IMG/VR virus record: IMGVR_UViG_3300045960_000114
Location: 1-64,000 of that record
Length of the DNA: 64,000 nucleotides
Direction: 5' to 3' (one strand)
From: a virus
Each line of letters begins with the position of its first letter. Position 1 is the first letter of the stretch. Position numbers and translations under genes: made by a program. This document shows positions 21,108 to 63,043 of the stretch, one piece after another. Under the pieces are notes generated by a model, which did no database searches, was not told the origin of the DNA, and worked only from the letters and a program-made list of their open reading frames with translations.

Positions 21108-24100
21108 ATGATGGGCGTGCCCGACAAGCCTGGGCTTAACCCGGCCACGAGCACCAAGCCGCTGGACTACACGCTTGGTTCCACACCGCCACCGCCTCAG
21201 GTGACGCATCGGTCGTTCACGGATTACCCTAAGATCCGACAGAACGTCTTCGACAACGCGCTCAAGGCGATGTCCGAGAAGTACCCGATTGAAAATCAAC
21301 GGCATCGATTGGAGCTGCGGGAGGCGAAGTACGAGGATCTGAACCCGTTCACCCTGAAGGACCAGAAGAAGGCCATCATGGAGGGCGGTACCCTCCAGAA
21401 GAAGATCCTGGGCACGTGGGCGCTCGTGGACAAGGCGACCGGCAAGGTAATGGACCAGAAGGCCACCACCGTCGCGCACGTGCCGTGGATGACCCAACGT
21501 GGTACGTTCATCTTTAATGGCAACGAGTACACGGTTGCCAACCAGATGCGACTGAAGCCCGGTATCTTCACCCGCGTGCGCGAGAACGGCGTTCTGGAAG
21601 CACACGTCAACGTCAAGCCTGGCACCGGCCCGTCCTTCCGCATCTACATGGAGCCGGATACCGGCGTCTTCAGGCTTGGCGTGGGGCAGTCCAACCTGAA
21701 GCTCTACCCCATCCTGCGTTCGATGGGCGTGTCCGATCACGATATCACGAAGCATTGGGGTCCGGAAATCCTTCAGAAGAATATCGAGGCCGAGGATCCG
21801 CGCGCGGTAGCCCGCGCATACATGCGACTGGTCAACGTCCGGTCTGAGGAGAGTGCCAAGGCTGAAGGCGCGGCGATGGATAAGGAAGCCTCCCTGTTTG
21901 GCGTGGACCCTGATTTTGACAAGGCGTACAGGGAAGGTTCGGAACTCACCAGCGACCTGTTCGACCCGCCGGCTGAAATATGGTCGCGGGTGTGCATCAA
22001 GAAGTCGCCCGTAGAGGGGAAGGGTCTGTTCGCCAGCCTCAACTTCGATGCCGGCGAGACCATCTTCCCTGCCTTCGTGTTCACCGGGATCGACAAGCAC
22101 AACGACAGCATCAAGCGGTCGGTTCCGGCACGCTGGCTGAACCATAGCGACACGCCGAATATCGAGTTGTACGAGGACGGAGACATCGTCTGGGCGCGTG
22201 CGCTGAAGCCCATTCAGGCTGGCGAGGAGCTGCTGCCGGATTACGTGCAGTCGCATGAAGCGGTCAATTCCTGGGTGAGCCGGCTGCTGCCGCTCCTCGA
22301 GAAGTCGGCCAAGATCGGCGCCCGGGAGAGTGATCGGCGCTGGACGAAGTTGTGGTACACGGGCCGGCTGATCCACTCCAGGCACAACCAGAAGGACTGG
22401 GTGCTGCTCAAGGTCCACAAAGGGCTGTGCGAGGCCACGTATGACTCGCTGAAGGCCGAGGGGATCGACTGCGAGCCCAAGTTCGACCAGCCGCACATCA
22501 GCATTATGCGCCCGGAGGAAGTCGAGCAGCTCAAGAAGAAGTTCGGCAATTCCTGGCAGGGTGCGGCCAAGATCGGCCATCCGATGCGTTTCAGCGTCAC
22601 CCGCATCGTGAATCTGGTGCCGGCGGGCTGGGACAAGTACGACCGCGTCTGGTTTCTTGAGTGCTCCTCGCCCGACCTGGAGAAGTACCGCGAGGACTTG
22701 GGGCTGCCCTGCCTCCCGCAGAACAACGAGAGCGGGCACGACATGCGCTTCCACATCACTGTGGCGGTGCATCCAAATACCGTGTCGAAGGCTGCGGAGC
22801 TGCTGTGCGAGAAGAGGGCTGCCGCGTTCGATGACGTTGGCTCCGGTACGAATGCTGTATCACCCAGGCCGGACAACCAGGGCAAGGCGCTGCTCGAGCA
22901 TTTCCAGAAGATGGAAGTCGACCCGGAGGTCACATCGGCCACGCTGGGTCAGGCGCACACCAACATTGGCATCCCTACGCTGATGCGTACCACGCAGAAG
23001 CTGATTAACGTCTCCCGCGAAACGGAAGACACGGATGACCGCGATTCGCTGTCTTTCCAGACGCTGCATGGTCCGGAGGACTTCTTTGCCGAACGTGTGA
23101 AGCGTGACGCGGGGATGATTGGTCGAAAGATGCTGTGGCGCGCGTCTGCTCGTGGGAACCTGAAGCATGTTCCCGCCGGTGTTCTGACCCCGCAGCTTCA
23201 TAGTGTGTTGCTCAACTCCGGCATGGGTATGCCGCTGGAAGAGACCAACCCGCTGGACATCTTTGACCAGAATCAACGTATTCTGCGGCTTGGCGAAGGC
23301 GCCATTCCATCCATCGAAGCAGTCCCTGATGAAGCACGCTCGGTTCAGCCGTCACACTTCGGGTTTATTGACCCGGTCAAGGCGCCTGAGTGCTATGACG
23401 AGGCGACTGAGGTCATGGTTGAGACTGGGTGGAAACCGTGGCCGAAGGTGACCGAATCTGACAGATTTGCTTGTCTCATTAATGGCAGGCTTGAGTATCA
23501 CCACGCTGACCGGTTGATCGCGGAGACCTACAAAGGACAGATGTATGGTGCGGATACTCAGACATTGAGTTATCTGGTAACGCCAAACCACCGCATGTGG
23601 GTGCGTCCTCAGGGGTCCACGAAGAAAGATTACAACCCGACTTACCGATTTGAGTTACCTGATGAGATTGTAGGCACAAACCGCCTATTCCGCTGCGGTG
23701 GGCATGCTCCAGTCGGCGGAACGCGAACTGGATTTACCCTTCCAGTAATTGAGGCGGATGGTAAGGAAAACCAGATTCACGGTAATCCACCTATTGGCTC
23801 CTCACTGAAGGTGTTCAAGGAAGTTGACATAAACGATTGGGCTGAGTTCATGGGGTGGTATCTCAGTGAGGGTAGTCTCAATGGGCAGTATGTAACTCGG
23901 ATTACCCAGTCGAACGTGGCGAACCCCGAGAACTGCTTGGCGATCAGTAGGCTTCTCAATCGATTACCTTTCACGTGGTGTTTCGTTGAAGGCGACACGT
24001 TCACCATCTCATCGAAACAACTGAATAGCTACCTCACACAGTTTGGGTTCTGTAACGATAAGTTTATCCCGAGTGAGATCTGGGAAGCCCCTGTTCTGGC

Positions 24101-27100
24101 GCGTGAGTTATTCTTGAGAGCGTTACTGGCTGGTGATGGGCGGACTAACAGGTACGGACGCAAGAGTCAGCTTTGCACTACCAGTCGGCGACTGGCTGAT
24201 GATGTGCAGCTTCTGGCATTTCAGTTGGGTCACTCTACTAGAATCTCGTTCGAGAAGGATGAGCGAAAAGATACGTACCTTGGATGTTATATCGTCAATA
24301 TCCACGCCAAGAATGAGCGTCTCGTTGTTGGTCGAAGCGCGTATCATCCCGACGGTCAATACCGTTCGGTAAACTATGACGGAAAGGTTTACTGCGCTAC
24401 CGTCCCTGGTGGTTTGTTGTACGTCAGGCGCGGTAACTCAGCTGGATTCTGGTGTGGTAACAGTGAGAAGATCGGCGTGGATCTGCGTGTCGCTCATGGC
24501 GCTGTCAAGGGATCTGACGGTCAGTTCTACACCACCGTGAAGAACGTCCAGAGCGGCGAGCGCGAACTGGTGTCGGCATCCAGCATGTCCAAGTCGGTCG
24601 TGGCATTCCCCGGCGAGATGAACCGAGACACGCCGAAGGTGCGGGCCATGGTCAACTCCAGGCGCGTGGAATACGTGCCTCGGGACGACGTGCAGTACGA
24701 GCTTCCTCATGGCTCAAACATGTTCGCCGCTGGCTCGAACATGGTGCCCATGATCGGCGGGATCAAGGGTGGCCGTCTGTTGATGGGTTCCAGAATGGTG
24801 ATTCAGGCGCTGCCGCTCAAAGGTGCGGAAGCACCGCTTGTCCGCAGCGCCGGCGAGGACGGGAACAGCTTCGAGAACCTCTACAGCGAGTACGTGGGGG
24901 CCGTTCGCGCCAAGGGGCACGGCGTCATCGAGCATGTGGATCCGGATAAGATGGTTGTCCGGTACAAGAACGGTGAGCGCGAGACACACGAGCTCTACAA
25001 CAACATGCCGTTCAACCGCAAGACACTGATCCACAGCACGCCACTCGTCAAGATCGGCGATACCGTGCGGCCCAACCAGCTCATGGTACACAGCAACTAC
25101 ACGGACAGGGAAGGCAACATCGCGCTGGGGCGCAACCTGCGCGTGGCCTACATGCCCTACCACGGCTCGAATTTCGAGGACGCCACTGTCATCAGCGAGT
25201 CGGCGGCCAAGAAGCTGTCCAGCGAGCACATGTACCAGGTCTCGCACGAAGTGGACAAGGACACGACGGTCGGGCGCAAGGAGTTCGTTTCCATCTTCCC
25301 GGCCAAATACCCGAAGGACGGGTTGAAGCATATCGACACCAATGGCGTTGTGAAGCCCGGTTCGATCGTCAAGCACGGCGACCCGCTGGTCCTGTCCATG
25401 CAGAAGGGCAAGATCGACGCACTGCATCGCGGGCACAGCCCGATGTGGTCCGACAAGACAACGGAATGGCATCACACGTCCGATGGGTTGGTCACCGACG
25501 TGGCGCCGACAAAGGATGGCGGCTGGAACATCATCGTCAAGTCGTACGCCCCCATGCAGGAAGGCGACAAGATGAGTGGCCGGTACGGGGACAAAGGTAT
25601 CGTCTCCAAGATCCTGCCCGACCATCAGATGGTGCATGACAAGGACGGCAGACCGTTTGACGTGATCCTGAACCCATTGGGAATTGTCTCTCGCATCAAT
25701 CCCAGTCAGGTTGTCGAAGCGGCGTTGGGCAAAGTGTCTGAACACACCGGCAAGCCGTACTCAATGCCTGCCTTCATGGAAGACGACTTGATCGGGCACG
25801 CGCAGAAGGAGCTGGCCAAACACGGGCTATCCGACACGGAAGACGTGTTTGACCCTACTACCGGGCGCAAGATCCCCAAGGTGTTCACGGGCAACCGCTT
25901 CATCATGAAGCTGCATCACACGGCTGAGTCCAAGGGCCGTGGGCGCGACATAGGTGGTTACACGGCTGAAGGGCTGCCCGCGCGCGGCGGCGAGGGTGGC
26001 AGTAAGCGAATTGGCCAGATGGAGCAGGCGGCGCTGCTGTCGCACGGCGCTACGGAAGTGCTGAAGGACGCGCAGATCGTACGCGGCCAGCGTAACGATG
26101 ATTGGTGGAGTTCGTTCAGGCGTGGGTTGCCGCCACCTTCCCCCAAGGTTCCCTTTGTCTACGACAAGTTCCTGAACTACATGAAGGGCGCCGGCATCAA
26201 CACCGACAAGCGCGGTGACCGGATTCACCTGATGGCGCTGACGGACAAGGACGTTGAGAAGATGTCGTCCGGGGCGATCACCAGCCGCGATACGGTGCGC
26301 GGTGATACGATGGAAGAGATCCCTGGTGGCTTGTTCGACCGACACATCACCGGGGGACATAATGGTGATCGGTGGGGTCACATCGCACTGGCAGAACCCC
26401 TGCCGAACCCCGTGTTCGAGGAGCCCATCAGGACTCTGTTAGGTCTAACAGCATCCAAGTTCTCTGATGTGCTGGCGGGCAAGGAGAAGCTGGGCGGCAA
26501 CACCGGTTCGAAGGCGATCTACACGGCGCTAAACAACATCAAGACCGGCGACGCGATCAAATATTACGAAGGCGTGATCAAGGACGGGCGCAAGTCGGCG
26601 CGCGATAAGGCCATTAAGGCGCTAGGCTACCTGCGCGGGCTGGAGAAGGGCAAGCTCAACCCGGTCGACCTGATGATGAGTAAGGTGCCGGTCGTGCCGC
26701 CCAACATGCGCCCCATCACGGTCTTCCGCAAGATGACCATGGTTGCGGACCCGAACTACCTGTACCGCGACCTGATGTTCTCCAATGATGCTTTCAAGGC
26801 GGTCAGGGATGAACTGGGCGAGGAGCACTCCGGCGATGAGCGACTCAACCTCTACAACTCCTTCAAGGCAACCACTGGACTTGGTGACCCAGTTCAAGCG
26901 AAAACCAAAGACAAAGGAGTGCGAGGGCTGCTTGCACACGTGTTCGGGTCGGGAAGTCCCAAGTTCGGCATGTTCCAGCGGCGCGTGCTGTCGTCATCGG
27001 TCGACGAAGTCGGGCGGGCCACAATCACCGTCAACCCCGAACTCAACATGGACGAAGTGGGATTGCCCGAACCAAAGGCATGGGTGATCTACCGTCCGTT

Positions 27101-27608
27101 CATCACCAGGCGTCTCGTGCGGCGCGGTATGCCAATGTTGCAGGCGGCCAAGGAAGTAGCCAACCAGTCGAGGGTGGCGCGTGACGCGATGATGGAAGAG
27201 ATCACGCAGCGCCCGGTCATCATCAACCGTGCGCCGGTGTTGCACCGGTACGGGTTCATGGCAGCGTGGCCCAAGCTGGTCAAGGGCGAGACGCTACATG
27301 TACCACCGGTGGTTTGCAGCGGCTTTAACGCGGATTTTGATGGCGACAACATGAACTACCACGTTCCCGCTACGGACGGAGCCGTCAAGGACGCTGTTGA
27401 AAAGATGATGCCGTCGCGTAATCTTAGGTCTGTCAGGAACTTCGGTGTGCAGTACACCCCGAAGAACGAGTTCCTACTGGGACTCTACCTGGCCTCGAAG
27501 GCCGACAACAAGAACGAGCCTAAGGTCTTCGCCAACAAGAAGGCCGTGATGGATGCCTGGAAGCGCGGCGAGATTGACGTAGGTGACCGCATCGTAACGA
27601 GGGATTGA
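21108..27608 (+). CDS. rpoBC: DNA-directed RNA polymerase beta fused to beta-prime N-half, with embedded SET domain, 2H phosphoesterase and intein
   Basis: beta: GTFIFNGNEY..NQMRLKPG, GDKMSGRYGDKGIVS, GGSKRIGQME. beta-prime: GGLFD..RWGHI, VPVVPPNMRP, NRAPVLHR, FNADFDGDNM catalytic motif. Confidence 0.95.
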   Translation: MMGVPDKPGLNPATSTKPLDYTLGSTPPPPQVTHRSFTDYPKIRQNVFDNALKAMSEKYPIENQRHRLELREAKYEDLNPFTLKDQKKAIMEGGTLQKKILGTWALVDKATGKVMDQKATTVAHVPWMTQRGTFIFNGNEYTVANQMRLKPGIFTRVRENGVLEAHVNVKPGTGPSFRIYMEPDTGVFRLGVGQSNLKLYPILRSMGVSDHDITKHWGPEILQKNIEAEDPRAVARAYMRLVNVRSEESAKAEGAAMDKEASLFGVDPDFDKAYREGSELTSDLFDPPAEIWSRVCIKKSPVEGKGLFASLNFDAGETIFPAFVFTGIDKHNDSIKRSVPARWLNHSDTPNIELYEDGDIVWARALKPIQAGEELLPDYVQSHEAVNSWVSRLLPLLEKSAKIGARESDRRWTKLWYTGRLIHSRHNQKDWVLLKVHKGLCEATYDSLKAEGIDCEPKFDQPHISIMRPEEVEQLKKKFGNSWQGAAKIGHPMRFSVTRIVNLVPAGWDKYDRVWFLECSSPDLEKYREDLGLPCLPQNNESGHDMRFHITVAVHPNTVSKAAELLCEKRAAAFDDVGSGTNAVSPRPDNQGKALLEHFQKMEVDPEVTSATLGQAHTNIGIPTLMRTTQKLINVSRETEDTDDRDSLSFQTLHGPEDFFAERVKRDAGMIGRKMLWRASARGNLKHVPAGVLTPQLHSVLLNSGMGMPLEETNPLDIFDQNQRILRLGEGAIPSIEAVPDEARSVQPSHFGFIDPVKAPECYDEATEVMVETGWKPWPKVTESDRFACLINGRLEYHHADRLIAETYKGQMYGADTQTLSYLVTPNHRMWVRPQGSTKKDYNPTYRFELPDEIVGTNRLFRCGGHAPVGGTRTGFTLPVIEADGKENQIHGNPPIGSSLKVFKEVDINDWAEFMGWYLSEGSLNGQYVTRITQSNVANPENCLAISRLLNRLPFTWCFVEGDTFTISSKQLNSYLTQFGFCNDKFIPSEIWEAPVLARELFLRALLAGDGRTNRYGRKSQLCTTSRRLADDVQLLAFQLGHSTRISFEKDERKDTYLGCYIVNIHAKNERLVVGRSAYHPDGQYRSVNYDGKVYCATVPGGLLYVRRGNSAGFWCGNSEKIGVDLRVAHGAVKGSDGQFYTTVKNVQSGERELVSASSMSKSVVAFPGEMNRDTPKVRAMVNSRRVEYVPRDDVQYELPHGSNMFAAGSNMVPMIGGIKGGRLLMGSRMVIQALPLKGAEAPLVRSAGEDGNSFENLYSEYVGAVRAKGHGVIEHVDPDKMVVRYKNGERETHELYNNMPFNRKTLIHSTPLVKIGDTVRPNQLMVHSNYTDREGNIALGRNLRVAYMPYHGSNFEDATVISESAAKKLSSEHMYQVSHEVDKDTTVGRKEFVSIFPAKYPKDGLKHIDTNGVVKPGSIVKHGDPLVLSMQKGKIDALHRGHSPMWSDKTTEWHHTSDGLVTDVAPTKDGGWNIIVKSYAPMQEGDKMSGRYGDKGIVSKILPDHQMVHDKDGRPFDVILNPLGIVSRINPSQVVEAALGKVSEHTGKPYSMPAFMEDDLIGHAQKELAKHGLSDTEDVFDPTTGRKIPKVFTGNRFIMKLHHTAESKGRGRDIGGYTAEGLPARGGEGGSKRIGQMEQAALLSHGATEVLKDAQIVRGQRNDDWWSSFRRGLPPPSPKVPFVYDKFLNYMKGAGINTDKRGDRIHLMALTDKDVEKMSSGAITSRDTVRGDTMEEIPGGLFDRHITGGHNGDRWGHIALAEPLPNPVFEEPIRTLLGLTASKFSDVLAGKEKLGGNTGSKAIYTALNNIKTGDAIKYYEGVIKDGRKSARDKAIKALGYLRGLEKGKLNPVDLMMSKVPVVPPNMRPITVFRKMTMVADPNYLYRDLMFSNDAFKAVRDELGEEHSGDERLNLYNSFKATTGLGDPVQAKTKDKGVRGLLAHVFGSGSPKFGMFQRRVLSSSVDEVGRATITVNPELNMDEVGLPEPKAWVIYRPFITRRLVRRGMPMLQAAKEVANQSRVARDAMMEEITQRPVIINRAPVLHRYGFMAAWPKLVKGETLHVPPVVCSGFNADFDGDNMNYHVPATDGAVKDAVEKMMPSRNLRSVRNFGVQYTPKNEFLLGLYLASKADNKNEPKVFANKKAVMDAWKRGEIDVGDRIVTRD
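21993..22247 (+). other. SET domain embedded in RNAP beta
   Basis: All three canonical SET motifs: KSPVEGKGLFA, RWLNHSDTPN, GEELLPDY. Confidence 0.88.
22311..22790 (+). other. 2H phosphoesterase domain embedded in RNAP beta
   Basis: Two H-x-[ST] motifs, PHISI (His codon at 22494) and FHITV (His codon at 22752), about 86 aa apart. Confidence 0.75.
23391..24461 (+). mobile_element. Intein (357 aa) with LAGLIDADG homing endonuclease
   Basis: Starts CYDEATEV; block B VTPNH; endonuclease blocks FMGWYLSEGS and FLRALLAGDG; ends GFWCGN followed by Ser. Visibly lower GC than the flanks. Confidence 0.93.
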
Positions 27609-27632: not shown

Positions 27633-27920
27633 ATGGCGAAACAAGATCTTCTTCAGATTCTGAAATCAGCGTGTGCGACGAACTGCTCGCCGATGCCTAA
27701 GAAGAAAAAGGCAACGATGGAGAAGAAAGCGCCGCCCGCCCCAGTAAAGACTGCGCAGCTGACAAAGGAGGAGGCGCTTGCGAAAGCGGCTTCCCTGGCG
27801 GTCATGTTGAAGGCCGGAGTGAAGGACGGTACTGAGAAGCGTGCAGCACTGAACAAGATCATTGCGGCTGAAGGCGTTGATGCATCACTCAATGCCGTTT
27901 TGAAATACCTCGAGGGATGA
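27633..27920 (+). CDS. Small basic KxA-rich protein
   Basis: ILKSA, VKTA, LAKAA and EKRAA in 95 aa; SD GGAG. Confidence 0.65.
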   Translation: MAKQDLLQILKSACATNCSPMPKKKKATMEKKAPPAPVKTAQLTKEEALAKAASLAVMLKAGVKDGTEKRAALNKIIAAEGVDASLNAVLKYLEG

Positions 27921-28120
27921 ACGCGCGCGCGTACTTAGTCAAACGGGCGCTGCCTGATCCGTTGGGGTTTCAGATGCGGCGACCGTTTCACGACCCGCGA
28001 CCGAATGAGTTCACGCGGGACGACCAGAGGTTTTTGCAGCAGCTTCTCGCGAAGCTGCCACCGATCAACCGGCGACCGGTGAAGGCCAGGATACACGGAA
28101 GAAGCGAGGTGGACGGATGA
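27917..28120 (+). CDS. Small protein with MNARAYLVKRA leader
   Basis: ATGA overlaps on both sides; leader shared with other ORFs. Confidence 0.65.
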   Translation: MNARAYLVKRALPDPLGFQMRRPFHDPRPNEFTRDDQRFLQQLLAKLPPINRRPVKARIHGRSEVDG

Positions 28121-28899
28121 ACAAGATCAACGCGGAGCTACTGCAGCGCATTCGTGCTGGGTTGACGAAACAGGCATTCGTCCCGATGGGGCCGAATGGT
28201 GCGCAGACGCCGCCCCCGCAGGATCCGAGCATGCAGGGGCCGCCTATGATGCCGCCTGGCGGTGCACCCGGGATGGATCCGTCTATGGGTGGTATGCCTC
28301 CCGGCGGTGCGCCAGGTGGTGCCCCGCCTGGTGCTGATCCTTCCGCTGCTGGTATTTCGGGTTCGGGTCAGCCGGTCATGCTGCAGATGCAGGATCTCAT
28401 GCAGCTTGTCCAGATGATGGGCAGCGGCGGTGGTGGCGGTGGCGCTGGCGGCGCCGGCGGCGGGGGTGCTGGCGGTGGCGGCGGAAAAGGCGGCGGAGCA
28501 AAGGAGTTGGCTGGAAAAGTTGATGCGATTGCCAACGACATCGCGCAGCTCAAGGCGTTCATCATGGGCACGCAGGCCAATGGCGGTGGGATGCCACCCG
28601 GCGGCGCGCCGCCTCCAATGGGTTCGCCGGTCAGTCCCGAGGCTGGCCCGCAGACGCCGATGATCCCCGGCCAGCCGCCTGGAATGCCGCCTGGCATGGA
28701 TCCGTCCATGATGGGCATGGATCCGTCCATGATGCAGGGTGGAATGCCCCCTGGCGGAATGCCGCCTGCCGGTCCTGCAGGCGGGATGCCACCTGGCGGG
28801 ATGCCGGTGCAGGCCAGTTTCGGCAAGCAAGCTGAGAAGGCGCCTCCGATGCCGAAGGCGCAGGTTCTTTCCGGGATCATCTCGAGGCTTCGAAGATGA
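28117..28899 (+). CDS. Pro/Gly/Met-rich low-complexity protein
   Basis: GGMPPGG and MDPSM repeats bounded by LTKQA and GKQA. Confidence 0.7.
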   Translation: MNKINAELLQRIRAGLTKQAFVPMGPNGAQTPPPQDPSMQGPPMMPPGGAPGMDPSMGGMPPGGAPGGAPPGADPSAAGISGSGQPVMLQMQDLMQLVQMMGSGGGGGGAGGAGGGGAGGGGGKGGGAKELAGKVDAIANDIAQLKAFIMGTQANGGGMPPGGAPPPMGSPVSPEAGPQTPMIPGQPPGMPPGMDPSMMGMDPSMMQGGMPPGGMPPAGPAGGMPPGGMPVQASFGKQAEKAPPMPKAQVLSGIISRLRR

Positions 28900-29117
28900 A
28901 AGTACGAATCGACAAGAACGGCTTCGAGTCCGAGATGTTAACGGACGCCAAAGCCATTGTCGTATTCGATGACTTCGACAACCCGATGTACGCTGCGAAG
29001 CAGATCAACGAGCACAACAGCGTACACGAGAAGGCAGGCGAACCCGGGTTCGAACAGATGCTGAAGACGTTTGGCTTGCGCCTGAAGGTTCCTTACAAAA
29101 CGGTGAAGATGACATGA
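28896..29117 (+). CDS. Hypothetical protein (73 aa)
   Basis: ATGA overlap with the upstream gene; typical codon usage. Confidence 0.6.
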   Translation: MKVRIDKNGFESEMLTDAKAIVVFDDFDNPMYAAKQINEHNSVHEKAGEPGFEQMLKTFGLRLKVPYKTVKMT

Positions 29118-32789: not shown

Positions 32790-32828
32790 GTGCCGTTTGA
32801 GGTAAATGTCGGATACGGAGGATGCAGC

Positions 32829-35096
32829 ATGCCCGGACCCACCTCCTCGGATGCAAATTTTGAGGCAACCTTCGCGGACCTCGCATTTGCACGCCTTCGT
32901 GACAAGGCGCCCAGCCTGCTCGACTATCTTGTCGGCTTCCAGCTTGTTGACAAGAATGACGAGGAAACGCACGCCATCGGCGTGTTTGGTTTCAAGGTGG
33001 GTAAAGAATGGGTGTACTCGCCGGTGTTTTTCATCAACGGCGAACTGAAGGGTCACGAGCTCATGTACATCAAGGGCCAGGACTCCTTCGTCCCCATGAC
33101 TGAACAATGGGTCAACTACGTGTTGAACCGCAGACCGAAGATCCTCGGTGAGAAGGAGGATACTCCACGGCCTCGGCTAAACCTGCGCCAGCCGGACTTC
33201 GATCTGTTTGCCCGCGCCCCCTATATCGGTTCCAAGTACGCTTCGGCAAACAAGGGCCGCATGCGGGAATGGGTGCACGATTTCCTGGACGTGTTCTCCT
33301 CCGAGCCGTGGAGCGAGAAGTACGCCAGCCTCGACCTTCCACACATGCTTAAGCGGTTTGGCAAGAAGGCGGCCATGTCCCTGTTCGAGACGATGACTTC
33401 AGATGAGGATTTCTCCCGGGCCGTGCTGAAGTTCTACGACCCACGCGAGCTGATCGAGGCGACTAAGCAGGCCGACATCGACGAGGTGGCCAAGGAACAG
33501 CGTAAGGGCAAGTCTTCCCTGCCCAAGCCGATTGTCCTGACCCGTGGCGATGACCAGAGCAACATTCTGCTGGACCTAACAGAAAAGGAAAAGGAGCAGC
33601 TGGCAAAGGGTGAGTACGTCGTCCGCAACTACACCGACCCGAGCCTGATCAGCCGGGTGGTGAAGGTGCAGTTGCCTCTGACGCTTAATGGTCCGGACCG
33701 CTCCGGCTTCTTCGATGTGTTGACCAAGGGACTCGAGCCGCGCAAGGCACTGGTCATCGTGGACTCGGCTCCGATTGGGTACGCAGCCTACCGCGATCCT
33801 CGCGTGAGTGTGGTCGTCGACATGGAGACCAAGCAGTTCGGGAACTACGGCAAGTCCGACATCATGGTTGGGAAACATTACGGCCAGGATGAGTTCAGCA
33901 AGTGGTGGAAGGGGCTGCCCGCCGGTGACAGCCTGCAGCCGGGCGACGTTGGCGTGCTGATCAACGAGAAGGGTGAAGGCACCTGCGTATTCGAGGCCGA
34001 GAACTCCTCGACGCTTGGCGGACGGACTGAAGTGCGGGTCTACGGCAGGAATTCTCTTTCACCCGGCGCCACGGTGCGCAAGGAGCCCTATCGCCCGAGG
34101 TCGGACAGCGGCCAGTCGGACTCAGTCGAATCGCTCGTTTTCTGCGAAAAGGAAGGCGACAAGCTGATTCGAGTTGGTGAGAGCTTTTTCGTCCCGAAGG
34201 GCTTCAAGTTCTTCAAGATCGACAAGATGGCGCGCTCGAACTACCCGAGTTCAGTAGGAAAGAGCAAGGGGCCGAAGAATCTGACGCTTGGTACGGTCGA
34301 GGATGTACGCGACAGCCTCAAGATCGCTGCCGATAAGGGCGAGGGCGCGTTTATAGCGATGCGCACCGACGGTCTCCGATTCATCCCGGTCGTCAACGAC
34401 GAACAGGTCGGGTACATGCCGAAGGAGTCGGCATTCCGTTACTTGATCTACCGGCACGGAATGTCGGCGGATGATGCCCACATGCTCCTGAAGAGCGCTG
34501 CCGTGCGACAAAATGGCGAGACGTTCTTCATCAAATACAGCTGGGGCGAGCCGCCCCAGAGCGCCTGGTTCCCCGAACCGCTCACTGGAATGGAGTACGG
34601 CCTGAATGTGCCGATTCAGTACCCATCAATGACGGCGCAGAACCTGGGGCAGAACGACACCTCAGGTGCGCGTGATGCGTACCGACACCGCTGGGATGAT
34701 GACCTCAATCAGCCGTATCGAACGAGGTTCGTGGATCAGAACGTCAAGGATCAGGCCAGCGCCGCCTCCCAGCTTGGTCAGAAGGAAGTCCTTGATACGT
34801 CAGTGATTACTGGTTTGGTCAAGACGATGGACTCGGACAGCACAGTCGATGGGTACATCGGCGACCTGTTGCTGGCCCTGGATCGGCTTGGCCGAATCCT
34901 CTTCCTTTATTACTGGCACAACGACAAGTTCCGGGAACGGTACGGCAGCCAGGACATGTCCGAGCTGGAAGACAACCTCCGGAATGTTTTCAAGAACCTG
35001 GGCGAGCTGGCCCTGTTCCTGAAGCAGAAGACGGTTGAGCCGGACAAGGCTGATACCTCTGAGGCCAAGCTGACGGACGTCGTTTCAGGAGCTTAA
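32829..35096 (+). CDS. Large hypothetical protein, probably head-associated
   Basis: Start after GGAGG; globular-looking N-terminal region (FEATFADLAF..GFQLVDKN..YSPVFF); multiple KxA motifs. Confidence 0.7.
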   Translation: MPGPTSSDANFEATFADLAFARLRDKAPSLLDYLVGFQLVDKNDEETHAIGVFGFKVGKEWVYSPVFFINGELKGHELMYIKGQDSFVPMTEQWVNYVLNRRPKILGEKEDTPRPRLNLRQPDFDLFARAPYIGSKYASANKGRMREWVHDFLDVFSSEPWSEKYASLDLPHMLKRFGKKAAMSLFETMTSDEDFSRAVLKFYDPRELIEATKQADIDEVAKEQRKGKSSLPKPIVLTRGDDQSNILLDLTEKEKEQLAKGEYVVRNYTDPSLISRVVKVQLPLTLNGPDRSGFFDVLTKGLEPRKALVIVDSAPIGYAAYRDPRVSVVVDMETKQFGNYGKSDIMVGKHYGQDEFSKWWKGLPAGDSLQPGDVGVLINEKGEGTCVFEAENSSTLGGRTEVRVYGRNSLSPGATVRKEPYRPRSDSGQSDSVESLVFCEKEGDKLIRVGESFFVPKGFKFFKIDKMARSNYPSSVGKSKGPKNLTLGTVEDVRDSLKIAADKGEGAFIAMRTDGLRFIPVVNDEQVGYMPKESAFRYLIYRHGMSADDAHMLLKSAAVRQNGETFFIKYSWGEPPQSAWFPEPLTGMEYGLNVPIQYPSMTAQNLGQNDTSGARDAYRHRWDDDLNQPYRTRFVDQNVKDQASAASQLGQKEVLDTSVITGLVKTMDSDSTVDGYIGDLLLALDRLGRILFLYYWHNDKFRERYGSQDMSELEDNLRNVFKNLGELALFLKQKTVEPDKADTSEAKLTDVVSGA

Positions 35097-35100
35097 CCTC

Positions 35101-35583
35101 ATGAACAGTGTGCGCACTTACCTGATCAAGTTAGCCGCAGCTGATGACGGGCTGCCTGGCTTGAAGGAACTGAGTGAAAGCACGGGGATCGATTTTCCGG
35201 GTGATAAACCAGAGGATCGACGGGCGCGCTACTCCCTGATGGATCTCGGCGAGAAGGGTCCGCTGATGTCTCGCGAGGCTGTGAATGCATACCTCAGGAA
35301 GAATACACCAAAGTACACCCCAAAGAGTGACTGGATAGGTAGGGGCGCGCTTATCGGTGCTGTTGGGTTGCCGCTATTCCTTAAGCATAGAGAGCTGAGG
35401 AGAATGGCCAACTCGGCAAAGCCGAACCAAAATACCTTGAAACAGGTGCTACAGCTGGCGGGCATGGGGGCGATTGGTGGCGCCGGCGTTGGCGCGTACA
35501 AACGTTACACCAGCCAGCAAGAGACGACTGAGAAGGCCATTGACGAGTACAACAAGCTTCGGCTGAGCAAGATGTACAAGTGA
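35101..35583 (+). CDS. KxA-leader glycine-zipper protein
   Basis: MNSVRTYLIKLA leader; GALIGAVG and AGMGAIGGAGVG helices. Confidence 0.65.
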   Translation: MNSVRTYLIKLAAADDGLPGLKELSESTGIDFPGDKPEDRRARYSLMDLGEKGPLMSREAVNAYLRKNTPKYTPKSDWIGRGALIGAVGLPLFLKHRELRRMANSAKPNQNTLKQVLQLAGMGAIGGAGVGAYKRYTSQQETTEKAIDEYNKLRLSKMYK

Positions 35584-35590
35584 GCTAACC

Positions 35591-36448
35591 ATGGACGAGC
35601 TGGCCAGCCTGCCATCAGAAGACGCGCCGGATTGGCGTTGGGCCGTCGTCCGTGCCATGTACGACAATGGCGACCCGCCCACACGCAACCCGGATGAACA
35701 TCTCTTCAATCGCGGGCTGCGCTTCCTTCGCCGGATAAAGAAGGGGCGGATTGTTGATGTGCTGGCCGCGAAGCGGGAGTATCCTGATCTGTATACAGCG
35801 CACAACATGCACAACAACCCGGCAAGCGAGAAGTGGATCATAGAGGCGGGTCTTCTGACCAACGTCTCGACTGCCGAGCTGGGCAAGTACGTTGCGCAGC
35901 CTGAAGAGGTGATCACTGCCTACGCCACATACTTCTTTGATGTGAAGGCCAAGCTGGATTCACGCGGGTACATCATCAACCGAGTCTTGACACCGGCAAG
36001 CCAGAAGATGGGGATCAACCCCCAGGACCCCGACTTCTCTTACAAGTCGATGGCTTATGGGCTCGGTTGGGAAGGCTTCACTGAGTTCATTGACCGGCGC
36101 GGGATCAGCGACAAGCTGCGTGGCTTCCTGAATACTGACTTCAAGGACAGGTTGGTCAAGTTGGGCTGGATGGCGACGCACGTCGTGAGTCTGAACAACT
36201 TCACGGCCATACCAATCTTCGAGCAGGTGCTGAAGCTGATGGCAATGGAGCTTCAAGTGCGCAACGAGATGGGGGTCTCCAAGGACGAGAGTTTGGCACT
36301 CATGGGTGCGTTGCTTAACTCCTGCAAAGTGACTATACTTCCACATGGTTCGGATCTTTGTCTGGACGAACCGCGCGCGCTGGAGATGATTCACGAGGGG
36401 CAGCCAAAACTGAGTTACGGCGATCCCATTCCGATTGAGAGGAAGTAA
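35591..36448 (+). CDS. Hypothetical protein
   Basis: 285-aa ORF with typical codon usage, in the operon. Confidence 0.7.
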   Translation: MDELASLPSEDAPDWRWAVVRAMYDNGDPPTRNPDEHLFNRGLRFLRRIKKGRIVDVLAAKREYPDLYTAHNMHNNPASEKWIIEAGLLTNVSTAELGKYVAQPEEVITAYATYFFDVKAKLDSRGYIINRVLTPASQKMGINPQDPDFSYKSMAYGLGWEGFTEFIDRRGISDKLRGFLNTDFKDRLVKLGWMATHVVSLNNFTAIPIFEQVLKLMAMELQVRNEMGVSKDESLALMGALLNSCKVTILPHGSDLCLDEPRALEMIHEGQPKLSYGDPIPIERK

Positions 36449-36449
36449 C

Positions 36450-37829
36450 ATGGAAGAGCTGAGCAAACAGGATGAGTCTCGAATCCTGGGCGCGTTGGAG
36501 CGAGCCATCGTGATGGCCAACGATGGATCTCATCCTACCGAGGCCATCCAGAAGGTGGCAGAGGACGGCAAGTTCACGCCGCCGATGATCCAGCGCATGG
36601 TCGAAGCCTACAACGTCTCCAAGATGATCAACCATCTTGGGCACGTGAAGGGTGCTGCCCGCGCCGACACCTTCCCCATCGCCTCAGCTGAGAAGATCAT
36701 TGAGGCCATGTATCCATCAAACATGGTAGCGCCGTCGGTCAAGGTGGCCGCGACCTACGTGCCGGTGGAACTGCAATCAGAGAGACACAACTTCAACAAG
36801 GTAGCTAACAAGCTGTCGGATCTGATTGCGGACAGCGCGTTCAACAAGAAGGCTGAGCCGTACGCGCCAGATCCTCTGACTGCAGAGAAGCGCAAGTTCG
36901 CTCAGCTGTCGCAGTTGAAGAAGGCGGAGGACGAGGCGATGAGCCGTGTCCGGCGCCACTACTTCGAGTTGCTCGGATTGACCAAGCAGGCGGCATCTCA
37001 GTTCCGTTTTGTGGCTCACCGGTCATTCGCTGAAGTCGAGCAGGACATCGTGGCCGCGCATGGATCGATGGGCAAGATGGCGATGGACATGGTGTACAGC
37101 TGGGGCGGACTGACCGAGAAGCGCGCGAAGATCGACGAGGCGCACCGGGCATTTTTCAAACCAAACGAACACCCGTACCGCACGGTTCTGGCCATGATCA
37201 AGGAAAGCCAGGAGATGGCGCGTGCCGCCAGCGATGCGGCGAAAGCCAGCCTGGCATGTCGCGAGAGCGAGGCGCTGGTCGGTGTCCCGAAACGGATGAC
37301 GAAGGAAGCGGCAAGGCGTGAGTTGGACTCGATCCTGGGCGACGATTCGGATGAAGACGACTTCTCCAAGCAAGCGCTCGAGGACACCCCTCCGGTCCCG
37401 TTTGTTCATCCGAATGTGCTCGATTCGATGAAGAACATTGCCGGCATCGGGATGAGCATGTCTGGTGTCAGGCCGCGTCCGTACGAGGATGTTAAAGAGG
37501 ATGTTGTGCAGGAGATGGCGGATCCCGTGCATGAGACAAAAATGCAGGGTATTCGTACGCAGGCCATCCTGAACGACTTCATGTCCAACGATCCGGTGCT
37601 GTCCACGTACCCACCGCATGAGGTGGCCAAGGCGTACAACAGCGTGGCCGACCTGTCGCCCGGTGTTGCACAGCAGCCGGCGGTTCTGCGCGGCGTACTT
37701 CGCCGTATGATGCAGCAGGAAGGCGTGATCGAGCCGTTCGAGGCGCAGCAGCTAACGCAGGTGGATAGGCATCTGCGCGGCTCAAGCGGTAATGAGGGGC
37801 GCCAGTCGCCAACAGAGTCTTCGCGCTGA
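36450..37829 (+). CDS. Helical KxA-rich putative head protein
   Basis: VKVA, NKVA, KKA, TKQA, EKRA, TKEA and SKQA sites; ATG after GAGG. Confidence 0.65.
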   Translation: MEELSKQDESRILGALERAIVMANDGSHPTEAIQKVAEDGKFTPPMIQRMVEAYNVSKMINHLGHVKGAARADTFPIASAEKIIEAMYPSNMVAPSVKVAATYVPVELQSERHNFNKVANKLSDLIADSAFNKKAEPYAPDPLTAEKRKFAQLSQLKKAEDEAMSRVRRHYFELLGLTKQAASQFRFVAHRSFAEVEQDIVAAHGSMGKMAMDMVYSWGGLTEKRAKIDEAHRAFFKPNEHPYRTVLAMIKESQEMARAASDAAKASLACRESEALVGVPKRMTKEAARRELDSILGDDSDEDDFSKQALEDTPPVPFVHPNVLDSMKNIAGIGMSMSGVRPRPYEDVKEDVVQEMADPVHETKMQGIRTQAILNDFMSNDPVLSTYPPHEVAKAYNSVADLSPGVAQQPAVLRGVLRRMMQQEGVIEPFEAQQLTQVDRHLRGSSGNEGRQSPTESSR

Positions 37830-37884
37830 TTGGTGTTGCTTAGGCGTCGTCAGATAGTAAGGTTGTAATGGGAGATACAGTAGG

Positions 37885-38625
37885 ATGAACGACTTGGTTG
37901 ATACGCTGGCCGTACGTTGCGTTCTTACTAAAGAAGCGATGACGGGCGTCGGCGTCGATCAAGACCCCGAGACTCGCCGTCTTCGCAACCTGTTCGACCA
38001 GTCCGTTGCTCGTGAGCAGGCTTTGCGAAGGCATGCGCAGCGTATGCACGACATGGCGCAATCCGCCAGTCAGAGCGAGCCGAATGAGGTTGGCGACATC
38101 ATCGGGGAGTCCGCTGCCCGGCTTCTTCCTATTCCGCGCTCGCTGGGTGAGGCCGCGATCAGAACTCCAATCGTGGGTGCATCGGCGCTTGCCGGCAAGC
38201 AGCTGATGCAGACGCATACCAACTCAGACCTGAAACGATTGTTTTCCGGTAGAGGCAGTTTCAAGTGGGACCGGCCTAATCTTTCGGGGAAGAAGACCAA
38301 TCTTCCGATTCGTGGACTTGTTGGCGGGCTTGCTGGCGCGGCAATAGGATCGGTTGCCACGGGCATTCCTATGGCCATCATGCACGCGATCAAGAAGATG
38401 CAGGGTGGCGAGACGGCTTACGATGCGCGCGAGGTTGCGGAAGAAGTGCAGGGCAGGGCCGAAGCCGAGCAGGCTAAGCGCGAAGAGCTGCTGAATCAGA
38501 TCAAAGCACGCATTCCGCAGCCTGCGGCCAATGCGCCCGTAGGTAAGGCGGCTGAATCGAATACGCAAGCTGAAGCTCTGGTGGACAAGATAAAGAAACG
38601 GGTGGAGGAGCATCAGCATGCTTAA
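37885..38625 (+). CDS. KxA-leader glycine-zipper protein
   Basis: VLTKEA; GLVGGLAGAAIGSVATG. Confidence 0.65.
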   Translation: MNDLVDTLAVRCVLTKEAMTGVGVDQDPETRRLRNLFDQSVAREQALRRHAQRMHDMAQSASQSEPNEVGDIIGESAARLLPIPRSLGEAAIRTPIVGASALAGKQLMQTHTNSDLKRLFSGRGSFKWDRPNLSGKKTNLPIRGLVGGLAGAAIGSVATGIPMAIMHAIKKMQGGETAYDAREVAEEVQGRAEAEQAKREELLNQIKARIPQPAANAPVGKAAESNTQAEALVDKIKKRVEEHQHA

Positions 38626-40075
38626 GATCGTTCTCTCGGGCTCATTTGACTTCGGCATTCCGACGGCGGCGCTGGTTGACGTCCACCGGCGCGGACCTGA
38701 TTCGGTATGGATGCAGAAGCGCGCAGCTGTCTTGACCCGCGAGCTGGAAGGAATTCGCCCGGAGCCCGGCCATTCGCACCTTCATCTGATCTCCATGGGC
38801 GCGATGGAAGCCTACGGGTTCAACAGGAACGGTGACGGCTTTAACGAGAAGACCGGCAGCTTCGAGATTCCGGAGCCGAAAGCCGGCACGCCGAAGATCA
38901 TCAAGCTGGCTGGCGGGCTGATCGACTTCCACCCGACCTTCCTAAAGTACGGCCATGTCTTCAAGCACCACATCAACAAAGACCCGCAGCGCGCGATCGG
39001 CGAGATCAAGGCGGCTGCGTTCAACCCCGAGATGCGGCGCGGCGAGCTGATCATTAAGGTACCGCACGGGCGTGAGTGGGATGACGACCTTCAGAAGCTG
39101 GCCAGCGGCAAGGACATCGCGTTCTCGATGGCCTGCAAGGTGGCCTACGACATCTGCAGCATCTGCGGCAATCGCGCCAAGACCCGGGCTGATTACTGCG
39201 ACCATGCTGCGAACCACATGTCCGCGATCACCAAAGAGGGGCACCAGGTTGGTGTCATCAACGACGCCCCTTCTTTTTTTGATATCAGCAAGGTGATCAA
39301 GCCCGCTGACCGAATCGCCTTCTCGCTGTACAAGGCGGCATCCGCCACTGCAGAGATGAGCGGTGCGGCGCTGGCTGAGGAGATCGGTCTGCTGGAGCCC
39401 AAGATCTACATCCCGTCGACACCGCTATCCTTGCTCTACAAGGAAAAGTTGGCGGCTGTTCGCAAACTGGCTGACATGGAAAAAGAAGTCGAGACCAAAG
39501 CCAGGGGCAGCGACAACAAACACCTGTCTGATCTCGGGGCGGCGACCAAGACGGATGAATGTAGTGAGGAGTTACAGAAACTCAAGGGCTGCCCGCTGGC
39601 GCAGGTTTTGAGTTCGTTGCACGACGCGCGCATCTCCCTGTCGCTCCGGGACTTCTTCAAACTGGTATCGAATGAGTCGATACCGGAGGGGGATCTAGAG
39701 GACGCGGAAGGCATGCTTCCCGGCATGTTCAACCGCATGCTGTCGGATGGCTCGGCGGATGACGACGCGCGTGACTCCGCCTACGACGGCGTTTCAGGTT
39801 CGCTTCCCGAGCCAATCCGCGAGATGATCGAGAAGATGACCGGGTCGCATTCAATGAGTGGGAATCCCGCACGCATGCGCGTGAGGGTGATGATCATACG
39901 TGGGGTGAAACCGAAAGTACGCCAACTCGATACGAAGCAGGCTTCGTGGAATGAGAAAGCAGCGGAACTGGTCAGGGAATATGGCCGGTACCAACTTGCT
40001 TTCGCAGCCCGCGAACGCCAGAAGGACATGCCAAGTAACGAGTTGACAGTGCTCAGGAATTACCTTACATTTTAA
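38618..40075 (+). CDS. Prohead (maturation) protease, HK97/assemblin-like
   Basis: VFKHH..D..AIGEI..A.FN...RGELII, FSMACKV.YD.CSICGN..YCDH; directly upstream of the scaffold and capsid genes. Confidence 0.75.
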   Translation: MLKIVLSGSFDFGIPTAALVDVHRRGPDSVWMQKRAAVLTRELEGIRPEPGHSHLHLISMGAMEAYGFNRNGDGFNEKTGSFEIPEPKAGTPKIIKLAGGLIDFHPTFLKYGHVFKHHINKDPQRAIGEIKAAAFNPEMRRGELIIKVPHGREWDDDLQKLASGKDIAFSMACKVAYDICSICGNRAKTRADYCDHAANHMSAITKEGHQVGVINDAPSFFDISKVIKPADRIAFSLYKAASATAEMSGAALAEEIGLLEPKIYIPSTPLSLLYKEKLAAVRKLADMEKEVETKARGSDNKHLSDLGAATKTDECSEELQKLKGCPLAQVLSSLHDARISLSLRDFFKLVSNESIPEGDLEDAEGMLPGMFNRMLSDGSADDDARDSAYDGVSGSLPEPIREMIEKMTGSHSMSGNPARMRVRVMIIRGVKPKVRQLDTKQASWNEKAAELVREYGRYQLAFAARERQKDMPSNELTVLRNYLTF

Positions 40076-40115
40076 TGCCGGACAACGACCGGCTGGCCTT
40101 ACGGGAGGCAAACCA

Positions 40116-41342
40116 ATGGCTGATAAGAAACTCGGGAACGCGCTGGCCCTTCTGCAGACCTTCATCAAGGAGGCACAGAAGTCTGAACAGATGGCGAAGA
40201 AGGCCACTGACCCCAGCGAGCCCACATCACATCCTGTGATGAAGTCGGAAGACGGAACCCAGAAGGCGCAGGAAGGCGCCAAGGGCACTGAGCTCACCAG
40301 CGACATCCGCAAGGCGTACGGTGAGTCCGGCGTGACCGGCCAGCAGGACGCCGGCAGCGCTCCGAACAACAGTGAGAAGTCCATCGGCGAGATGAAGCCG
40401 TTGGCCTCGGATTCGATGGGCGGTAACGTCCAGCAGCCGAAGGCCACCAAGGACGCGCCTCCTGGCAAAGGTCCCGGTGACAATACCTTCTCGGAGAAGT
40501 ATTCCGAGCTGGCGAGCATCGGCAACCGGTTGCTCGGTTCGCTGAGCACGTTGGTCCAGCAGAAGCAGGCTGCCATGCCGCCGCAGCTTGCCGCCGCGTT
40601 GGGAAAGAAGGAAGCTCCCAAGGAGGCGCCTCACGCTGAGACGAAAGCCGAAGAAAAAAAAGAAGGACCGGCCCACGAGAAGACCGAGGGGCCGAAAGTA
40701 GAACAGGCTGAGCACAAGACGGCTGATGCGAAGATGGCCGCCGCTGAGCAGTATCCCGACGATGCGGCAGCCGGCTACATGGTTGCCCAGTCCCTCCTCG
40801 AAGAACTCAATCAGAACCAGATGCAGCAGAAGCAGGCTGCCGATCAGTTCGAAAACATCATCAAGACCGCACAGGCCGACGCTGAGCTGTACGCGAGTTT
40901 TGTCAGTGGGCTCACCAAGGGCGCAGAGTTCGGTCATTTCGCCCGCACGAAGGCTGCCGAAGGACTTCCGATGTCGGAGGAAGGCAGTGAGGGCGGCGAA
41001 GGCGCTGCGGACGCTGGCGGCATGCCGGAAGGTGCTGGCGGCGGTGGGCTCCCGCCCGAAATCATGGCGCAACTGGCTGGCGGTGGCGGCGGTGCCGGGC
41101 CGGAAGCCGGTAGTGCGGGTGGCGAAGGCGGCGGTGACAATGAAGCCGTCATCGACGAGCTGGCCCAGGCGCTGGATCAGGCTGGTGTGACCCCCGAAGA
41201 ACTGGCGCAGGCGATCGCCCAGTCGCAGGGCGGCGGCGAAGGCGGAGAAGGCGGCGCTGGTGGCCCCCCTCCCGAGATGGCCGGCAAGGCTGCTTCCGCG
41301 AGAGTCAAGATGGCCAATGCTCTGAAGAGCCTGGTGGCCTAA
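40116..41342 (+). CDS. Scaffold / prohead core protein
   Basis: Charged low-complexity sequence with about ten KxA sites; located between the protease and the capsid gene. Confidence 0.6.
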   Translation: MADKKLGNALALLQTFIKEAQKSEQMAKKATDPSEPTSHPVMKSEDGTQKAQEGAKGTELTSDIRKAYGESGVTGQQDAGSAPNNSEKSIGEMKPLASDSMGGNVQQPKATKDAPPGKGPGDNTFSEKYSELASIGNRLLGSLSTLVQQKQAAMPPQLAAALGKKEAPKEAPHAETKAEEKKEGPAHEKTEGPKVEQAEHKTADAKMAAAEQYPDDAAAGYMVAQSLLEELNQNQMQQKQAADQFENIIKTAQADAELYASFVSGLTKGAEFGHFARTKAAEGLPMSEEGSEGGEGAADAGGMPEGAGGGGLPPEIMAQLAGGGGGAGPEAGSAGGEGGGDNEAVIDELAQALDQAGVTPEELAQAIAQSQGGGEGGEGGAGGPPPEMAGKAASARVKMANALKSLVA

Positions 41343-62573: not shown

Positions 62574-63043
62574 GCACTTCAACCAACTACAGCGGCAGGA
62601 CGGTTGACCTGCTGATTTTTCAAAACACGAAGCCCTCTGGAAACCAGAAGATCTTCATGGGATTCGGCACGGGCGGTGAGTTGACGACTGGCGTCCAGAA
62701 GGTGTCGCAGACCTTCACCACGATCCTGCTGACTGACATAGGCTCGGTGTACGACCAGCCTGATTACGGGACCGATCTGATACTGTCCATACAGTCTGGA
62801 CAGACGCAGAACGGAAGCGATCTCGAATCGGCGTTCAACATCGCAGCGGCGGCTGCAAAGTCGATCATGGATCAGGCCGCCGAAGATGCAGGTGCGCCGC
62901 CAGATGAGCGCTTGAGCACGGCTGTGCTCTCGGACTACATCCTGGACAAGAACAGTGGGAAGATCGTATTGACCGTGGTGATCACCACGGAGGCCGGTGC
63001 AAGTGCGACCATCTACCTGCCTGTGAGTGTGCCCATCACATGA
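62570..63043 (+). CDS. Baseplate wedge subunit, gp25-like
   Basis: TGVQKVSQ.F..ILLT..GS...P.YGT.L and DERL..A.L pattern. Confidence 0.6.
   Translation: MSTSTNYSGRTVDLLIFQNTKPSGNQKIFMGFGTGGELTTGVQKVSQTFTTILLTDIGSVYDQPDYGTDLILSIQSGQTQNGSDLESAFNIAAAAAKSIMDQAAEDAGAPPDERLSTAVLSDYILDKNSGKIVLTVVITTEAGASATIYLPVSVPIT

Follow-up and report, generated by a model that had tools for sequence, protein, structure and literature searches.

The window analysed here comprises the first 64 kb of a 185,265-bp, single-contig virus record in IMG/VR (IMGVR_UViG_3300045960_000114), the completeness of which CheckV estimates at 88%. It contains an RNA polymerase (RNAP) gene of 2166 amino acids (aa) that carries, inside its β part, two predicted enzymes, a SET lysine methyltransferase and a 2H phosphoesterase, bordered by the tripeptide Lys-any-Ala (K-x-A; Table 1). 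In the whole open reading frame (ORF), Pfam detected RNAP Rpb2 domains 3 and 6, Rpb1 domains 1 and 2, SET, 2H-SAK and LAGLIDADG, and a profile search of the PDB with this ORF and two homologs matched bacterial RpoB at E 1e-111 and RpoC or the cyanobacterial γ subunit at E 1e-69. These profile matches identify the product as a predicted bacterial-type β subunit fused to the N-terminal half of β′. The frame ends beyond the NADFDGD motif (nt 27327-27347) and includes only this half of β′; the rest (β′-C) is encoded separately. At aa 356-410, the β′-C protein has a sub-threshold match to Peptidase_M23 (20 bits, below the cut-off of 28.7; E 7e-4), which probably reflects the sandwich-barrel hybrid motif (SBHM) of β′ and not a peptidase.

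The nearest database phages were Salmonella phage Arash (gp206, 1525 aa) and Vibrio phage D69, whose proteins align over the whole length at 33-34% identity. Two blocks of the alignment are absent from both homologs. The first, aa ~249-587, is an in-frame insert of ~340 aa in β that holds the SET and 2H domains. The second, aa 762-1118, is an intein, and the extein junction APE/S is restored in Arash and D69. The last residues of the intein are Gly-Asn, not His-Asn, and inteins are found elsewhere in the same RNAP gene in the relatives P0003, P0005, P0007 and P0009. The SET-2H segment was itself considered as an intein, and this was rejected because aa 249-590 matched neither a Hint nor any other intein profile in Pfam. 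When Arash virions were analysed by mass spectrometry (MS), gp206 had the highest spectral count among all virion proteins, and the β′-C subunit gp216 was abundant too (PMC10585845). From the homology with gp206, which is 33% identical and has no insert, we infer that the 2166-aa protein is packaged in the virion.

Table 1. Coordinates, in the 64-kb window, of the polymerase gene, its cassette and the associated genes and motifs
Feature	Position	Strand	Remarks
RNAP β and N-terminal half of β′	21108..27608	+	one open frame, 2166 aa, with the SET-2H cassette and an intein
β N-terminal block (aa 1-248)	21108..21851	+	by alignment; reaches the β-lobe loop that holds the insert
K-x-A no. 1 (MD-KEA-S), K259	21882..21890	+	30 aa upstream of the SET core
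Predicted minimal SET lysine methyltransferase domain (aa ~290-397)	21975..22298	+	Pfam SET
K-x-A no. 2 (LE-KSA-KIGARESD), K399	22302..22310	+	immediately 5′ of the 2H module
Predicted 2H-SAK phosphoesterase domain (aa ~402-559)	22311..22784	+	Pfam 2H-SAK
K-x-A nos. 3 and 4 (VS-KAA-ELLCE-KRA-AAF), K561 at 22788 and K569 at 22812	22788..22820	+	just 3′ of 2H
Gly/Ser/Pro-rich linker into β	22821..22880	+	β homology restarts at GKALLEHFQKMEVDPE
LAGLIDADG intein, 357 aa (aa 762-1118)	23391..24461	+	Pfam LAGLIDADG_3; interrupts the conserved β region DPVKAPE/SEKIG
K-x-A leaders	27633-29140, 35101-35140, 37885, 40116, 46472		RNAP/head region
Rest of β′ (β′-C)	30182-32026		separate ORF
Head-assembly cluster	32790..41342	+	four genes rich in K-x-A
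Candidate prohead protease, 485 aa	38618..40075	+	predicted fold of T4 gp21/herpes assemblin, aa 15-237; helical scaffold-like C-terminal half
K34-R-A36	38717-38725		flanks the protease core
K239-x-A241	39332-39340		flanks the protease core; disordered stretch right after the fold, mostly Ser next (L-Q-K-V-A-S consensus)

Both domains of the cassette scored above their Pfam cut-offs. SET (PF00856) reached 30.6 bits in the whole ORF (aa 337-379) and 38.4 bits in the excised segment (cut-off 22.4), and 2H-SAK (PF22547) reached 35.1 bits (aa 460-558) and 40.7 bits, respectively (cut-off 27). The SET motifs GxG (VEGKGLF, 22011-22031), NHSxxPN (WLNHSDTPN, 22134-22160) and EELLPDY (22224-22244) are present in register with those of the MLL1 SET domain, PBCV-1 vSET (1n3j) was matched at E 4e-4, and the motifs are likewise retained in the relatives L005 and P0002. 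Both catalytic H-x-S/T motifs of 2H, PHISI (aa 462-466; 22488-22505) and FHITV(A) (aa 548-552; 22746-22766), are present and are conserved in every aligned relative, including in an alignment with free-standing 2H-SAK proteins. For 2H-SAK, 182 library proteins were retrieved at E ≤ 1e-10, and no sequence relative was found in the PDB. With scores above the cut-offs and catalytic motifs kept, SET and 2H-SAK are predicted to be intact enzymes. Linkers of about 40 and 35 aa border the cassette, the segment that follows the first K-x-A (SLFGVDPDF...) is conserved in P0002, and β homology restarts at about aa 590. A preliminary description of this DNA had placed SET and 2H within β; all the elements that it listed are present, and its K-x-A coordinates are exact.

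PBCV-1 vSET is a minimal SET protein of a eukaryotic virus, reported to be packaged in the virion, and targets histone H3K27. The SET domain described here is likewise virus-encoded, measures ~120 aa and has no pre-SET or post-SET, but it is embedded in a phage polymerase, whereas vSET is a free protein.

The insert is flanked by the conserved segments 'YxxLV' and 'KMExDPxxT', and its site aligns to the 270-290 loop ('RPGEPPT' loop) of M. tuberculosis RpoB. We take this site to be a surface loop of the β lobe, presumably ~25 residues upstream of the position of SI1 in E. coli. Like the lineage-specific insertions of RNAP β, such as E. coli β SI1, the insert is a large, lineage-variable insertion of a lobe loop between conserved segments. 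The known insertions are built of BBM2/SBHM structural repeats and are not known to have enzymatic activity. In contrast, the domains found here are exchangeable and predicted to be catalytic, and no BBM2/SBHM repeats were found in the insert, for which Pfam gave SET and 2H instead. The cassette could be read as a permanent lineage-specific insertion, with SET and 2H tethered by flexible linkers in the lobe loop and the K-x-A tripeptides left uncut. The tethered enzymes would then act beside the polymerase; their targets could be, for instance, the ends of nascent or host RNA, or a lobe-bound protein. Bacterial RNAPs reportedly tolerate large lobe insertions (so Lane and Darst in 2010), and linkers of ~40 and ~35 aa could bring both ends of the cassette back to one loop. 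The N4 virion RNAP, moreover, is packaged unprocessed despite a peptidase domain (PMC5512222).

A scan of IMG/VR yielded 53 related loci, and an exhaustive profile search with the insert added more proteins. The insertion site is empty in L006, L054, L015 and all Arash-like loci. Elsewhere its content varies, from 2H without a recognised partner domain (P0005, P0006) to a HAD phosphatase with 2H (L003), SET, HAD and 2H (L005, L039), SET, DUF5661 and 2H (P0002), or a Cys-rich module followed by 2H and further Cys-rich or helical modules (L004, P0009, P0010). 2H stays constant, with no other enzyme between it and the point at which β resumes, and the modules upstream of it are swapped among relatives. 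Most relatives share the conserved junction 'K-[ESD]-A-[KQ]-IGA' before 2H, with K-x-A in 12 of 13 RNAP-linked 2H modules, and K-x-A is also found just after 2H in 8/8 aligned relatives.

In two relatives, the gene is split immediately upstream of 2H. A β-N gene of 272 aa in L056, located by tblastn and 56% identical to the β-N of the window, is followed by a 535-aa gene and then by a 1922-aa ORF beginning with 2H. In P0003, an HNH endonuclease gene lies between the upstream part and an 1868-aa ORF that also begins with 2H. Because of these natural splits, chain continuity at the insertion loop is dispensable. The preliminary description had proposed to ask of homologs whether they lack the passengers, exchange them or encode them on their own with the K-x-A boundaries still in place, and each of the three situations occurs, as it had predicted. 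The same comparison bears on the possibility that the junctions are artefactual, arising from an assembly chimera or from separate genes misread as one ORF. No stop codon interrupts the 6.5-kb frame, RNAP homology flanks the insert at either end, and contigs of independent origin (IMG/VR, ENA and Logan; different samples) have the same architecture. A chimera, which the preliminary description had named as a possible refutation, is therefore excluded, and we give artefacts of either kind practically no credence.

The Cys-rich modules in the slot (L004:3637-4845, P0009 aa 227-746 and P0010 aa 228-743) match no Pfam family. The module before 2H resembles ...CxxCxxF...C...GWC, and the one after it reads CHHCGxCC...C...C...C; these modules may be metal- or Fe-S-binding passengers. 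The 535-aa protein of L056 (L056:2401-4008) is Gly/Ala-rich and occupies the slot in which other relatives carry SET/HAD in frame. It was considered as a diverged passenger of a known family and rejected, with no Pfam match and no similarity to P0001. In distant relatives (L016, L019, L038, L052), the fused gene is split into β (plus the β′ N-terminus) and the rest of β′-N, in a variable acidic region after '...PNPxFExPIxxLLGL', and extra genes lie between the pieces in L019-type loci. This split lies elsewhere, within β′-N, and a link with K-x-A was rejected.

Across the genome, K-x-A shows a small excess (277 against 234 expected). The nine RNAP inserts contain 68 K-x-A against 28 expected (2.43-fold, Poisson 1e-10), with 9/9 above expectation, whereas the RNAP cores of the same nine insert-bearing proteins stand at 0.93. 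A-x-K, KA, AK, K-xx-A and R-x-A are at about 1 in these inserts. Because the reverse and neighbouring patterns are flat, we rejected Ala/Lys-rich linker composition as the source of the excess. We also rejected K-x-A as a substrate motif of the SET enzyme, since Arash has no SET and yet shows the same enrichment. Across relatives, the tripeptide lies 0-30 residues ahead of each module and just after 2H, and the residue that follows it (P1′) is variable in inserts.

K-x-A is also frequent near the N-termini of proteins encoded around the polymerase and head genes. It occurs in the first 25 aa of 8 of the 19 plus-strand genes at 27.6-48.2 kb and of 19/204 elsewhere (Fisher p = 5e-4), which agrees with the earlier remark that neighbouring proteins have leaders ending in this motif. 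The leaders end in hydrophobic-x-K-x-A (MNARAYLVKRA, MSAYELLKRA, MNSVRTYLIKLA, ...RAGLTKQA) and, short as they are, look like capsid-targeting sequences of the T4 type.

The lowest per-gene Poisson p-values for K-x-A in the genome belong to four adjacent genes of the head cluster (32790-35096, 36435-37829, 38618-40075 and 40116-41342). The motif is enriched 2.3-3.5-fold in these genes, and the controls A-x-K, KA, AK, K-xx-A, R-x-A and K-x-S are near 1. ORF 36435 has multiple K-x-A in its N-terminal two thirds and none in its last 150 aa. The Arash counterparts of the four genes show the same pattern: K-x-A was seen 10 times against 3.0 expected in gp220, 7 against 3.2 in gp222 (the homolog of ORF 38618), 8 against 3.0 in gp223 and 7 against 1.8 in gp225.

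ORF 38618, which the preliminary description had taken for the protease, has the gp21/assemblin prohead-protease fold in its predicted structure. The AlphaFold (AF2) model, based on an alignment of 41 sequences, had a predicted local distance difference test score (pLDDT) of 80.3, with segment 239-245 below 50. VIA-align matched it to T4 gp21 (5jbl_A) at Z 9.1, with a root-mean-square deviation of 3.0 Å over 135/165 residues, and to the VZV (1vzv_A), HCMV and KSHV proteases at Z 7.1, 4.6 and 3.6, respectively; the best unrelated fold reached Z 5.8. The gp21/assemblin match came from the VIA-align wide search only. A Foldseek search of the PDB, dominated by the helical C-terminal half, returned nothing at E ≤ 0.001. 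PHROGs and Pfam gave no family for this ORF (no annotated PHROG), and atlas features gave weak S77/S78 leads at 0.91. A sequence search for the protease retrieved 390 homologs (E ≤ 1e-5). Neither K34 nor K239 varies among 41 homologs with 38-74% identity, of which 39 have A36 and all 41 have A241. The arrangement at K239-x-A241 is, by analogy, that of an autoprocessing release site, and herpes assemblins cut after Ala, mostly before Ser. On these two grounds, a protease specificity for cutting after K-x-A is structurally reasonable.

The R and M sites of herpesvirus assemblin have the consensus (V/L)-x-A↓S. The candidate phage protease resembles assemblin in its predicted protease fold, in the linker and the helical, scaffold-like part behind this fold, and in a conserved site directly C-terminal of the protease domain, where Ala would be P1 and the P1′ residue is mostly Ser. 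It differs in having Lys rather than an aliphatic residue at P3 and in belonging to a phage system, with a candidate site read from sequence. The head proteins of giant phages carry multiple protease motifs, and the prohead protease of phiKZ/SPN3US cuts head and ejection proteins at A/S/G-x-E (PMC10052503). As with T4 gp21 and phiKZ/SPN3US, a protease of (here predicted) gp21/assemblin fold is encoded in the head cluster, a three-residue motif recurs in head-internal proteins and at leader ends, and a virion RNAP, here a presumed one by homology, is among the contents of the head. In contrast, the candidate site here is K-x-A (Ala at P1, Lys at P3), whereas it is x-x-Glu in those phages, where processing removes propeptides and the excision of enzymes from the middle of a polymerase is not known.

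2H-SAK also occurs outside the polymerase. P0011 (L058:7185-9530) is a free-standing protein with 2H-SAK, SET and InPase, and about two dozen other free-standing proteins match both halves of the insert. In the free-standing proteins with 2H-SAK and SET, with or without InPase (P0011, P0016, P0018, P0032, P0058), K-x-A occurs at residue ~19, before 2H, and at residue ~187, after it. Six tabulated free-standing 2H-SAK proteins contain 47 K-x-A against about 25 expected (summed per-protein values), and in the 19.5 kb of L058 no homolog of the head genes of the window phage was detectable. The occurrence of K-x-A around 2H in such proteins would suit an explanation in which the motif is real but does not mark cleavage, being a docking or capsid-targeting element, or a helix-capping or linker sequence that travels with 2H-SAK. 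The variable P1′ points in the same direction. A simple linker composition, however, does not fit the directional asymmetry, in which K-x-A is raised and A-x-K is not. K-x-A is, moreover, invariant at both ends of the assemblin-fold core, at the C-terminal end within a disordered stretch, a layout that mirrors the release site of herpes assemblin, which cuts after Ala. The distribution of sites in ORF 36435 also resembles the fragmented propeptides of giant-phage head proteins (PMC10052503). We consider it improbable that K-x-A serves only such a non-cleavage role.

On balance, we lean towards release of SET and 2H from the RNAP precursor by the prohead protease. According to this mechanism, the β and β′-N subunit of a multisubunit RNAP would be carried by the virion and injected to serve early transcription, and its β-lobe surface loop would be the cargo slot for a cassette of the 'polyvalent protein' type. 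The precursor chain would enter the prohead whole. There, the prohead protease would cleave behind K-x-A, which places Ala at P1 like the sites cut by herpes assemblin, and so give β-N, free SET, free 2H and β-C/β′-N. The two polymerase pieces would remain assembled, as in relatives with separate genes, and upon infection SET and 2H would be ejected alongside DNA and polymerase. The target of SET would be a lysine in a protein that belongs to the host or is co-injected, and 2H would open 2′,3′-cyclic phosphate RNA ends (end healing) or destroy 2′-5′/cyclic-oligonucleotide immune signals. A more general proposal, which we put forward tentatively and with a little less than even confidence, is that the lobe loop is an evolvable cargo slot: effectors (SET, 2H, HAD and Cys-rich modules) would reach the capsid within an essential and abundantly packaged RNAP subunit and be excised by an assemblin-fold protease of new Lys-x-Ala↓x specificity, leaving the RNAP split but functional, and free counter-defence enzymes would be ejected in the first seconds of infection.

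Several observations weigh against release. The 2166-aa protein contains 11 K-x-A against 9.9 expected, and the insert 4 against 2.2; because these counts are at chance, the pattern in the single protein is not significant. What stands of the earlier claim that K-x-A bounds each module is the presence of the motif at every border, with significance reached only comparatively. About seven K-x-A remain in the RNAP core, and the motif alone is therefore insufficient for cutting. 2H stays directly upstream of β-C even in the split genes P0003, P0007 and P0008, and in the split form P0007, K-Q-G replaces K-x-A before 2H. Because free-standing 2H-SAK proteins carry K-x-A near the start of 2H, in a contig that is apparently unrelated, two of the four cassette sites could be intrinsic to the 2H domain. 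When AF2 modelled the insert (aa 249-589) from its sequence alone, the pLDDT was 33.5 and the model unusable. The Arash study reports 100% sequence coverage for gp206 (PMC10585845), but gp206 has no insert and such coverage reveals no chain breaks.

The persistent fusion of 2H to β-C and the chance count in the single protein are both consistent with a permanent tether. However, a tether leaves several results without a counterpart: the 2.4-fold excess in nine inserts with flat controls and flat RNAP cores, the position of K-x-A ahead of every module, the recurrence of the same motif in head-cluster proteins and around the protease core, and the natural gene splits that make continuity unnecessary. 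We regard permanent tethering, with enzymes acting beside the polymerase, as a serious rival, though a less likely one than release. The polyprotein-cargo reading of the preliminary description is in this way partly supported. The swaps and splits in homologs, the protease fold and the enrichment of K-x-A in inserts and head proteins speak for it, but the always-fused 2H fits an uncleaved tether equally well.

Iyer, Burroughs, Anand, de Souza and Aravind (2017) described the polyvalent proteins of phages and conjugative elements, multi-effector chains that they proposed to be packaged and injected by phages, some with 2H fused to MuF or portal domains, and suggested RNase or 2′-5′/cyclic-nucleotide-degrading roles for 2H (PMC5512222). 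The RNAP gene resembles them in combining unrelated effector enzymes in one phage chain, with 2H recurrent and domains shuffled among relatives. The at least two unrelated effector domains by which polyvalent proteins are recognised, together with shuffling, are found here as SET and 2H, with HAD, DUF5661 and Cys-rich modules in relatives. The free-standing 2H relatives that combine with SET and InPase, such as P0011, add to the likeness. In contrast to polyvalent proteins, the carrier is a multisubunit RNAP and the cassette is internal to an essential enzyme, not appended to it. There is also no cis peptidase (MPTase) domain, and the candidate processor is the prohead protease, acting in trans. 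The concept of virion-delivered multi-domain polyvalent proteins, 2H included, is thus already published (PMC5512222), and what is new to our literature searches is the RNAP carrier: like the preliminary description, they turned up no RNAP with SET/2H passengers.

In L003 and L005, the HAD modules show a weak match to the PNKP phosphatase family. A cyclic phosphodiesterase paired with a 3′-phosphatase is what RNA end healing requires, and because 2H and a PNKP-like HAD would make such a pair, RNA repair is, from these domain matches, a serious candidate function beside signal degradation. The 'Swiss army knife' family was reportedly named by Burroughs and Aravind in 2016. Its HAD members have been described as phosphatases that heal RNA ends (PMC7824862). 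A 1271-aa ORF (genome 63040-66855, L060) starts in the window at 63040. Its first ~485 aa match Arash gp217, a 'DNA helicase' that is a virion protein by MS, and its later part has a weak match to RNA_ligase (PF09414; E 2e-4, below the cut-off). This ORF may be a helicase-ligase fusion, which would be relevant to the RNA-repair reading of the 2H module. No match to the T4-type RNA ligase PF09511 was found in the genome, but a control search was equally empty, so this result is uninformative.

If the cassette is cut out, the gene would be the first cellular-type RNAP gene to serve as a polyprotein carrier of injected effector enzymes. K-x-A would then be a new head-protease specificity that is readable from sequence, and the packaged and processed proteome would become predictable for a large, mostly uncultured phage clade. 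The protease motif can be tested in cultured relatives, Arash among them, even though Arash has no insert. An uncut cassette would be no less unusual: no earlier lobe insertion of an RNAP would have consisted of active enzymes. In both cases, the constant 2H, with or without a PNKP-like HAD or SET, points to pre-emptive counter-defence delivered with the early transcription machinery, the activity of which could be RNA end healing or the destruction of cyclic or 2′-5′ nucleotide signals.

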